Source: a virus (Duplodnaviria; Heunggongvirae; Uroviricota; Caudoviricetes). From it: a stretch of 33,149 nucleotides of DNA. Shown here one piece after another: positions 8,900 to 9,935 of the stretch (position 1 is its first letter; each line of letters starts with the position of its first letter). The stretch lies in IMG/VR virus record IMGVR_UViG_2526164669_000028; one strand, 5' to 3'. The notes below the pieces were generated by a model. It worked only from the letters and a program-made list of their open reading frames with translations. It did not search any database and was not told where the DNA came from. The translations under genes and the position numbers were made by a program.

Positions 8900-9935
8900 T
8901 CAGCCGTTGTCAGTGTCCAGTGAGTAGTTTTTAAAGCGGATGACCTCCTGACCGAGCCAGCCGTTTATCTCGCGGATCCTGTCCTGTAGCGGGATAAGCT
9001 CATTGCGGACAAAGACCTTTGCCACTTTCTCAATATCACCCAGCGACCCGACGTTCTCCGGCTTGCCGCCCATCAACTGAAAGGGGATGCGGTGCGCGTC
9101 CAGCAGGTCAGCGGCGCTGGCTTTTTTTGATATTAAAAAAATCGTCCTTCGTTGCGACTTCACTGAGCGGGATAATTTTAATGCCGTCGGCTTTCCCCTG
9201 TGGGGCATAGAGAAACAGATTTTTAAAGTTGTTGCGGCCTTTCGACTTCACCATGTTTTCGCGGAGCATTTCGATATCGTTGCGATCCTGCACGGCATCA
9301 GTGACGTACATGATGTATCCGGCATGTGCGCCGTTTTCGTAATACTTGCGGCGGAACAGCGTGGCCGACTCATTCAGCCAGGCAGAGTTAAGGGCGCTGA
9401 GATATTCCGGCAGGCCGTACAGCTCCTGATTAATATCCGGCTCCAGCAGATGAAACACGGAGCCGGGCGTGAAAGGTGTCGGCTCGTTGAAGGACGGCAC
9501 CCACCAGTAAACATCCTCCTCCACACCACGGCGGGTATATTTTGCCGGTGAGGTTTCCAGTCTGATGACCTTACCGGTGGTGCTGTATCGCTTTTCCAGA
9601 AACGCATTACCGAACACCAGAAAATCCAGCACAAAGCGGCTGAAATCCTGCTGGGAAAGCCACGGATGCGGGATAAATGTCGAGGCCAGAATATTACGTT
9701 TGACGTAAATCGGTGAGCTGTGATGCACGGCAGCACGCAGGCTTTTTGCCAGACCGGTAAAGCTGACCGGTGGCTCATACCATCTGCCGTTACTGATGCA
9801 CTCGACGTAATCCAGAATGTCACGGCGGTCGAGTACCGGCACCGGCTCACCAAAGGTGAAAGCCTCCATTTTCGGGGCGCTGGCGGTCATTTTTTTTGCC
9901 TCAGGTTGCGGTGTTTTCCCTTTTTTCTTGCTCAT
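8900..9935 (-). pseudogene. Q: Portal protein gpQ, interrupted by a +1 frameshift in a homopolymer (or sequencing error)
   Basis: ORFs 9108..9935 and 8900..9208 together span the P2 Q length (about 344 aa) but lie in different frames. Frames switch at the T7 run 9122-9128 (A7 on the coding strand); P2 reads ...DDFFNIKKASAADLL..., here ...DDFFNIKKSQRR* then ...KKASAADLL. Confidence 0.8.

Follow-up and report, generated by a model that had tools for sequence, protein, structure and literature searches.

The window, by which we mean the whole stretch of 33,149 nucleotides analysed here, is a P2-like prophage lying between cpxP and fieF in Escherichia coli DEC11B (draft contig AIGW01000044.1 of GCA_000250135.2, the 2012 draft assembly of this strain). 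Its genes were mapped by tblastn, using all P2 proteins together with the proteins of a related prophage of E. coli D7. The map is that of a complete P2-like prophage with its genes in prophage order, as follows in window positions (all from the tblastn map):

4-981: int
up to 5787: C, cox, B and A
between A and Q/P: a cargo region
minus strand: Q and P
after Q/P, in this order: O, N, M, L, X, Y, K, lysABC, R, S, V, W, J, I, H and G
between G and FI: a second cargo stretch
up to 32007: FI, FII, E, T, U, D and ogr
up to 33149: fieF of the host

Leaving Q aside, every P2 gene found in the window is matched over about its whole length, in one frame and without gaps, the exception being H, a mosaic tail-fibre gene that is nevertheless a single open reading frame (ORF) of 709 codons. 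With all P2 proteins as tblastn queries, nothing in the window corresponds to the four nonessential genes orf30, fun(Z), tin and old of P2. In the fibre gene (20574-22703), a good match to P2 gpH is limited to the first 251 residues, the C-terminal receptor-binding part being 36% identical, and the fibre is therefore a mosaic; a 132-bp (44-codon) tandem repeat, with 4.5 copies of 89% identity, lies inside the gene at 21120-21707.

At the left end (window 1-1750), identity to P2 is only 52% for the integrase and 43% each for the immunity repressor C and cox, whereas all three agree fully with the D7 prophage (100% identity). The immunity and integration type differs from that of P2, the late region being otherwise 96-100% P2-like. 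Between gene A and the cos/Q end, the plus strand codes for a helix-turn-helix (HTH) protein (6376-6696; PADLOC HTH_VI, E 7.7e-31) and, overlapping it, for a reverse transcriptase of 316 aa (6674-7624; PADLOC RT_VI, E 4.1e-105), a pair which makes up a type VI retron-like defence module in the old/tin hotspot of P2. Rfam found no retron msr/msd RNA. The reverse transcriptase is very widespread in identical form (2028 index blocks), and gpD is also a common protein (227 index blocks). The interval between G and FI (23458-25146) is a second cargo hotspot, where P2 fun(Z) and orf30 are absent and three small ORFs, one of them for a DUF3606 protein, have identical or almost identical counterparts in the prophage of E. 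coli D7.

Portal gene Q and its A7 run

The features at and around Q are these, from the terminase gene towards cos:

9935..11707, minus strand: terminase large subunit gene P, 590 aa, intact, 99.7% identical to P2 gpP over its full length and without gaps
9108..9935, minus strand: 5' part of Q as encoded, 275 aa, made of gpQ residues 1-271, then SQRR and a premature TGA
9135..9141, minus strand: adjoining run of seven T's on the coding strand (GAT TTT TTT, Asp-Phe-Phe), six bases upstream of the A7 run and invariant in relatives
9122..9128, minus strand: homopolymer with the extra base, A7 on the coding strand (T7 on the plus strand), A6 in relatives
8900..9121, minus strand: 3' part of Q, residues 272-344 and the stop, intact in a frame displaced by one base
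8900..9208, minus strand: 102-aa ORF of the mechanical ORF list, its last 73 codons being Q and its first 29 codons out-of-frame Q
8873..8894, minus strand: Rho-independent terminator, GCCGCCTGCGGGCGGC followed by T6, downstream of Q and corresponding to P2 tQ

The end of P overlaps the start of Q (ATGA), so that the two genes form one operon as they do in P2. The neighbourhood reproduces the P2 map, with the match to P at 9938-11707 on the minus strand, O at 11881-12732 on the plus strand, and then N, M and L; Q thus lies downstream of P, and the O-N-M-L head operon diverges from them. As with P2 gpQ (344 aa, PF04860), whose position and orientation are the same, the Q-P operon starts at a divergent pP/pO region and runs leftwards, followed downstream in both by the tQ terminator and the cos side; the P2 annotation places tQ directly after Q. 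Just beyond the terminator towards cos, a non-coding 8-bp tandem repeat (GTGAGCGT, 2.6 copies, 8834-8854) differs in copy number from one sibling prophage to another, and many alignments have 8-bp gaps there.

The deposited gene departs from that of P2 gpQ by an extra A after codon 271, leaving a 275-aa product and a displaced remainder of 73 codons. P2 gpQ is matched by tblastn in two frames, over residues 1-272 and 232-343: the first segment aligns to 9935-9120 at 97.8% identity, and the second is in frame -2. Across the site the coding strand reads GAT TTT TTT AAT ATC AAA AAA AGC CAG CGC CGC TGA, the premature TGA being at 9110-9108, 3' of the run, while the P2 reference NC_001895 reads ATC AAA AAA GCC. 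The run belongs to a 20-base stretch of low complexity (9122-9141; T7 AATATC A6). In the mechanical ORF list the 275-aa ORF of the minus strand ends with DDFFNIKKSQRR before its stop (also written KDDFFNIKKSQRR); it has been deposited as EHW99185.1, 'phage portal protein, PBSX family'. The 102-aa ORF of the same list contains KKASAADLLDAHRIPFQ (also written KKASAADLLDAHRIPFQLMGG) and finishes with DTDNG and a stop. It had no match in Pfam, and its exact sequence is absent from the protein collection. In the repaired translation and the three-frame translation alike, the last 73 residues of Q differ from P2 at the final residue only.

As deposited, then, Q is not a single uninterrupted ORF of about 344 codons. 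Deletion of one A makes it one: the resulting 344-aa protein shares 338 of 344 residues with P2 gpQ (NP_046757) and all of them with the portal of a sibling prophage (Logan ERR197198; 100% identity). When the region was aligned with MAFFT to the best E. coli match, two P2-type phage genomes and another E. coli prophage, there was one gap in the coding region, at window position 9128, and all four relatives had A6. The split at A7 is a +1 insertion in the A6 run of a P2-type portal gene Q. Chance is not at issue, since this is a specific one-base difference from more than 1000 homologues and not a statistical pattern. The initial annotation had proposed that ORFs 9108-9935 and 8900-9208 together rebuild a portal of P2 length, and the ORF list agrees with it exactly. 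Its placing of the split at T7 9122-9128, where P2 reads AAA AAA GCC, coincides with the MAFFT gap and with NC_001895, and its view that the other structural genes are intact holds as well, the P2 genes besides Q being of full length by tblastn.

The repaired portal, like that of the sibling, matches PF04860 (Phage_portal) with 52.5 bits, over residues 89-327 and profile positions 45-276, and the 275-aa product as encoded reaches 33.4 bits (residues 89-274, profile positions 45-224). The truncation removes about one fifth of the Pfam portal domain and takes the score below the gathering cut-off of 39.1 bits. A PDB sequence search with the portal matched no solved structure. Judged by its sequence, by Pfam once repaired and by synteny, the gene is to be counted as a member of the P2 gpQ portal family, from which it departs only in the interruption of its ORF.

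The run among relatives

Homologues are plentiful: of 5426 complete E. coli genomes, 1663 have a match to the Q region (1667 records in all), in most cases with 95-99% identity. A query of 94 bases across the run found 1187 places in 1104 complete E. coli genomes, none of them at 99% identity or above: the top matches span 93 bases in the record, which is the A6 form, and the best ones differ by a single-base gap. Scans for the exact A7 pattern, tolerant of two common flanking SNPs, returned nothing in IMG/VR, in the GTDB species genomes or in the JGI metagenome contigs, and the A6 pattern had at least 120 matches in IMG/VR alone. Of 163 retrieved loci, three have A7, and all three come from the DEC11B contig itself; A6 is found in 149, which are all of the non-DEC11B loci containing the site (149/149). 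The same single gap at 9122-9128 appears against about 25 aligned relatives.

The proteins tell the same. An exact-sequence look-up has the 275-aa product on record in one contig only, AIGW01000044.1. The identical terminase P is found in 17 contigs; among the ten of these that were listed, eight have a complete 344-aa Q, one has Q cut by the contig end (282 aa, locus L017), and the 275-aa product occurs in the DEC11B contig only. Wherever annotation or gene calls were retrieved for relatives with a contig covering the whole gene, Q is a single ORF of 344 codons. Portals of 279, 289 and 290 aa in the same 90% cluster were considered as frameshifts at the same site and rejected: they read in the correct frame (…KKASAADLLD…) and are partial at contig ends. 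Over the collections searched, the A7 allele is private to the DEC11B assembly.

This distribution bears on two readings in which the split would be real and yet compatible with portal production. In one of them the run would be a programmed frameshift site, or a phase-variable (contingency) tract switching the portal on and off, the location of the lesion in a homopolymer being its sole support. Against it, A6 is found in all 149 non-DEC11B loci and in the best matches among the 1187 places, and Q is a single 344-codon ORF wherever annotation was retrieved. Neither the two-ORF layout nor the slippery tract is conserved among homologues (A7 in 0/149 non-DEC11B loci), nor is the tract polymorphic in length among close strains, with A6 everywhere but in the DEC11B assembly. 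Because tract length is invariant elsewhere and the two-ORF layout is not conserved, we discard programmed frameshifting and phase variation, to which next to no credence can be given.

In the other reading the split would be real but leaky, transcriptional slippage or a +1 ribosomal slippage of tRNA-Lys on A7 yielding some full-length portal and a hypomorphic prophage. Skipping one A (AAA AAA A, then GCC) does restore the Q frame exactly, and only 12 copies of the portal are required per virion. However, the documented cases of frame restoration at A or T runs have at least 8-9 bases in the run (PMC1088944). A passage in PMC6260861 has slippage of the E. coli RNA polymerase detectable with at least seven T's and 'even more' A's, that is, with more than seven A's, whereas the sense strand offers this enzyme, which transcribes the P2 late genes, only A7; by either source the tract falls short of the length for efficient polymerase slippage. 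Furthermore, the run is not in the X XXY YYZ register, a -1 shift enters the third frame and meets a stop after 18 codons, and no relative keeps the A7 or the split arrangement, hence no sign of selection for recoding. Established slippage systems (dnaX of Thermus with its A9, mxiE of Shigella, IS elements) resemble this locus in having a frameshift in an A run where removal of one A restores the frame, but in them the run has at least 8-9 bases and homologues conserve it (PMC1088944), and the present A7 is unique. The Rfam scan of the whole window gave no family at gathering score, so that no known RNA element is recorded at the frameshift site. Leaky expression is very improbable.

The closest comparison is with siblings, defined as contigs that encode exactly the terminase P, the replication protein A or the tail protein D of the window:

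GCA_012296005.1: window 2109-11787 (9679 bp), 0 mismatches, 1 gap (the A)
Logan ERR197198: window 8700-15707 (7007 bp), 0 mismatches, 1 gap (the A)
Logan SRR24315757: window -149..6391, 0 mismatches, 0 gaps
Logan SRR23081474: about 11.9 kb, 2 mismatches, 1 gap (the A)
ENA ERZ19243451: window 20548-33149, 1 mismatch (in host fieF, 32351), 0 gaps

With the best sibling taken for each segment, the extra A is the sole difference over about 28 kb of prophage, and the siblings with a contig over the whole gene have the 344-aa portal. No second indel was found against the siblings in 35.6 kb of DEC11B sequence (the window and 2.5 kb of the cpx flank), and both 8-base runs of the window (9890-9897 and 32158-32165) are called correctly. 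A chimeric assembly of two P2-like prophages was rejected, since to either side of the site the window agrees base for base with single-copy siblings.

Over-call or mutation

We favour, with a probability of about 0.65, a homopolymer over-call, in which A6 was read as A7 in the DEC11B draft. From the deposited frameshift, its uniqueness and the identity of the siblings we infer that the base was miscalled or misassembled, rather than mutated in the strain. The real prophage would then carry an intact 344-aa portal gene of P2 type, and no biological mechanism would be needed. The low-complexity stretch T7 AATATC A6 is of a type at which a base is gained or lost in consensus calling that is flow-based or has low coverage. 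The change has the signature of such errors, being of one base in a run of at least six, in a single assembly, with independent assemblies otherwise identical. The over-call is preferred because the allele is a singleton, because there are almost no SNPs around it and because unexplained private frameshifts have been reported in other drafts of the DEC series; a lone indel unaccompanied by substitutions fits an error profile better than divergence.

As for the other drafts, another group noticed private frameshifts in three strains of the same sequencing project, DEC9A (cas3 and cse1), DEC9E (cas3) and DEC10D (cas3); it could not exclude sequencing or assembly errors and left the three strains out of its cas gene analysis (PMC5592225). 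For other E. coli drafts of 2012, though not for DEC11B, the same centre and laboratory described 454 Titanium 3-kb paired-end libraries and Celera v6.0 (PMC3491183). The present case is like the homopolymer errors of drafts of about 2010-2012, typical of 454 data, in that a one-base change of a run is private to one assembly with identical siblings, and in that sister DEC assemblies are flagged for unexplained frameshifts. It differs from them in that no second error is seen in 35.6 kb of DEC11B.

This difference weighs on the other side. With 35.6 kb of inspected sequence otherwise free of indels and both 8-base runs right, the assembly is locally clean, and deep Illumina data would rarely miscall a run of seven bases. 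Slippage in A6 during replication is a common real mutation, and late genes of a prophage are unselected in the lysogen. DEC strains have also been stored for long, and a recent private mutation would yield the same comparative pattern as an error. The extra A may be a real, strain-private and very recent +1 replication slippage (A6 to A7) that left a portal-null prophage, a possible but clearly less probable origin. Homopolymer slippage is the commonest spontaneous frameshift, the frameshift is present in the deposited sequence, and the truncated product lies below the family cut-off (33.4 versus 39.1 bits) with the repaired one at 52.5. Intact P2 genes elsewhere and an unchanged, displaced 3' part have the look of a very recent event, and the inspected DEC11B sequence is without another indel. 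By contrast, the allele is in no other genome, virus or metagenome record searched, and the absence of SNPs from about 28 kb of prophage when compared with the siblings leaves very little evolutionary time for a mutation; suspicious private frameshifts in sister assemblies of the same project also count against it.

The initial annotation had set inactivation and assembly error side by side, unranked. Its choice of alternatives stands and they can now be ordered: uniqueness of A7 and base-identity of the siblings favour the assembly error, and inactivation is the less favoured. It was right that inactivation, if real, would be very recent, there being no further change downstream of the shift and almost no SNPs against the siblings. 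All remaining readings together receive very little weight. The lesion is either a homopolymer error of a draft or the pseudogenisation of a prophage by a single hit; both are familiar and neither is novel.

Consequences for the phage and for its annotation

Q, the portal gene, is an essential head gene of P2. Its null mutants make no DNA-filled heads and give no support to P4, tails and lysis being unaffected. If the mutation is real, DEC11B would make a gpQ fragment of 275 aa lacking the C-terminal 73 residues, and no functional portal; in turn there would be neither proper nucleation of the procapsid nor packaging of DNA. Production of tails, lysis functions and retron cargo would go on, the element being non-infectious but otherwise complete and devoid of helper function for P4. 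It would be likened to Q amber mutants of P2, with a Q-null phenotype predicted, and to cryptic P2-like prophages of E. coli, where decay by a single lesion is commonplace. Classical cryptic P2 remnants are different in that they lost most of their genes, whereas here the rest is intact and the lesion comes without accompanying decay. P2-type prophages are classically not inducible by SOS or mitomycin, and a particle-free outcome after mitomycin C would therefore be uninformative.

In a further reading, which is improbable, the loss of the portal is real and the sole lesion of the prophage; a derepressed cell would then produce lysis proteins, contractile tails and heads that are empty or aberrant, and no infectious virion. 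If this were true, the locus would offer a one-step snapshot of a P2-like phage that could be starting on its way to a tail-only, R-pyocin-like element (tailocin) or to a fixed carrier of the retron. Low-level rescue by slippage in the A run is a variant of this tailocin or retron-carrier reading and shares its slight weight.

Under either reading of the extra base the biological importance is small. A real mutation would add one more prophage disabled by a single slippage, of interest to workers on DEC11B only, for whom the strain would be a naturally portal-null P2 lysogen, unable to help P4 and releasing headless tails. If, as we think probable, the extra A is an artefact, its consequence is limited to annotation: EHW99185.1 (275 aa) would under-report an intact, probably functional P2-like prophage, and homopolymer frameshifts in drafts of the DEC series would be suspect in calls of prophage completeness.

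A last observation concerns the mobility of the intact form. Compared over window -2501..11787, the contig from GCA_053931585.1 has nine mismatches in the 2.5-kb cpxA-cpxP flank and three in 11.8 kb of prophage. The flank having more mismatches than the prophage, this suggests a recent transfer of the intact phage form from one E. coli lineage to another, with cpxP-fieF as the attachment site in both.
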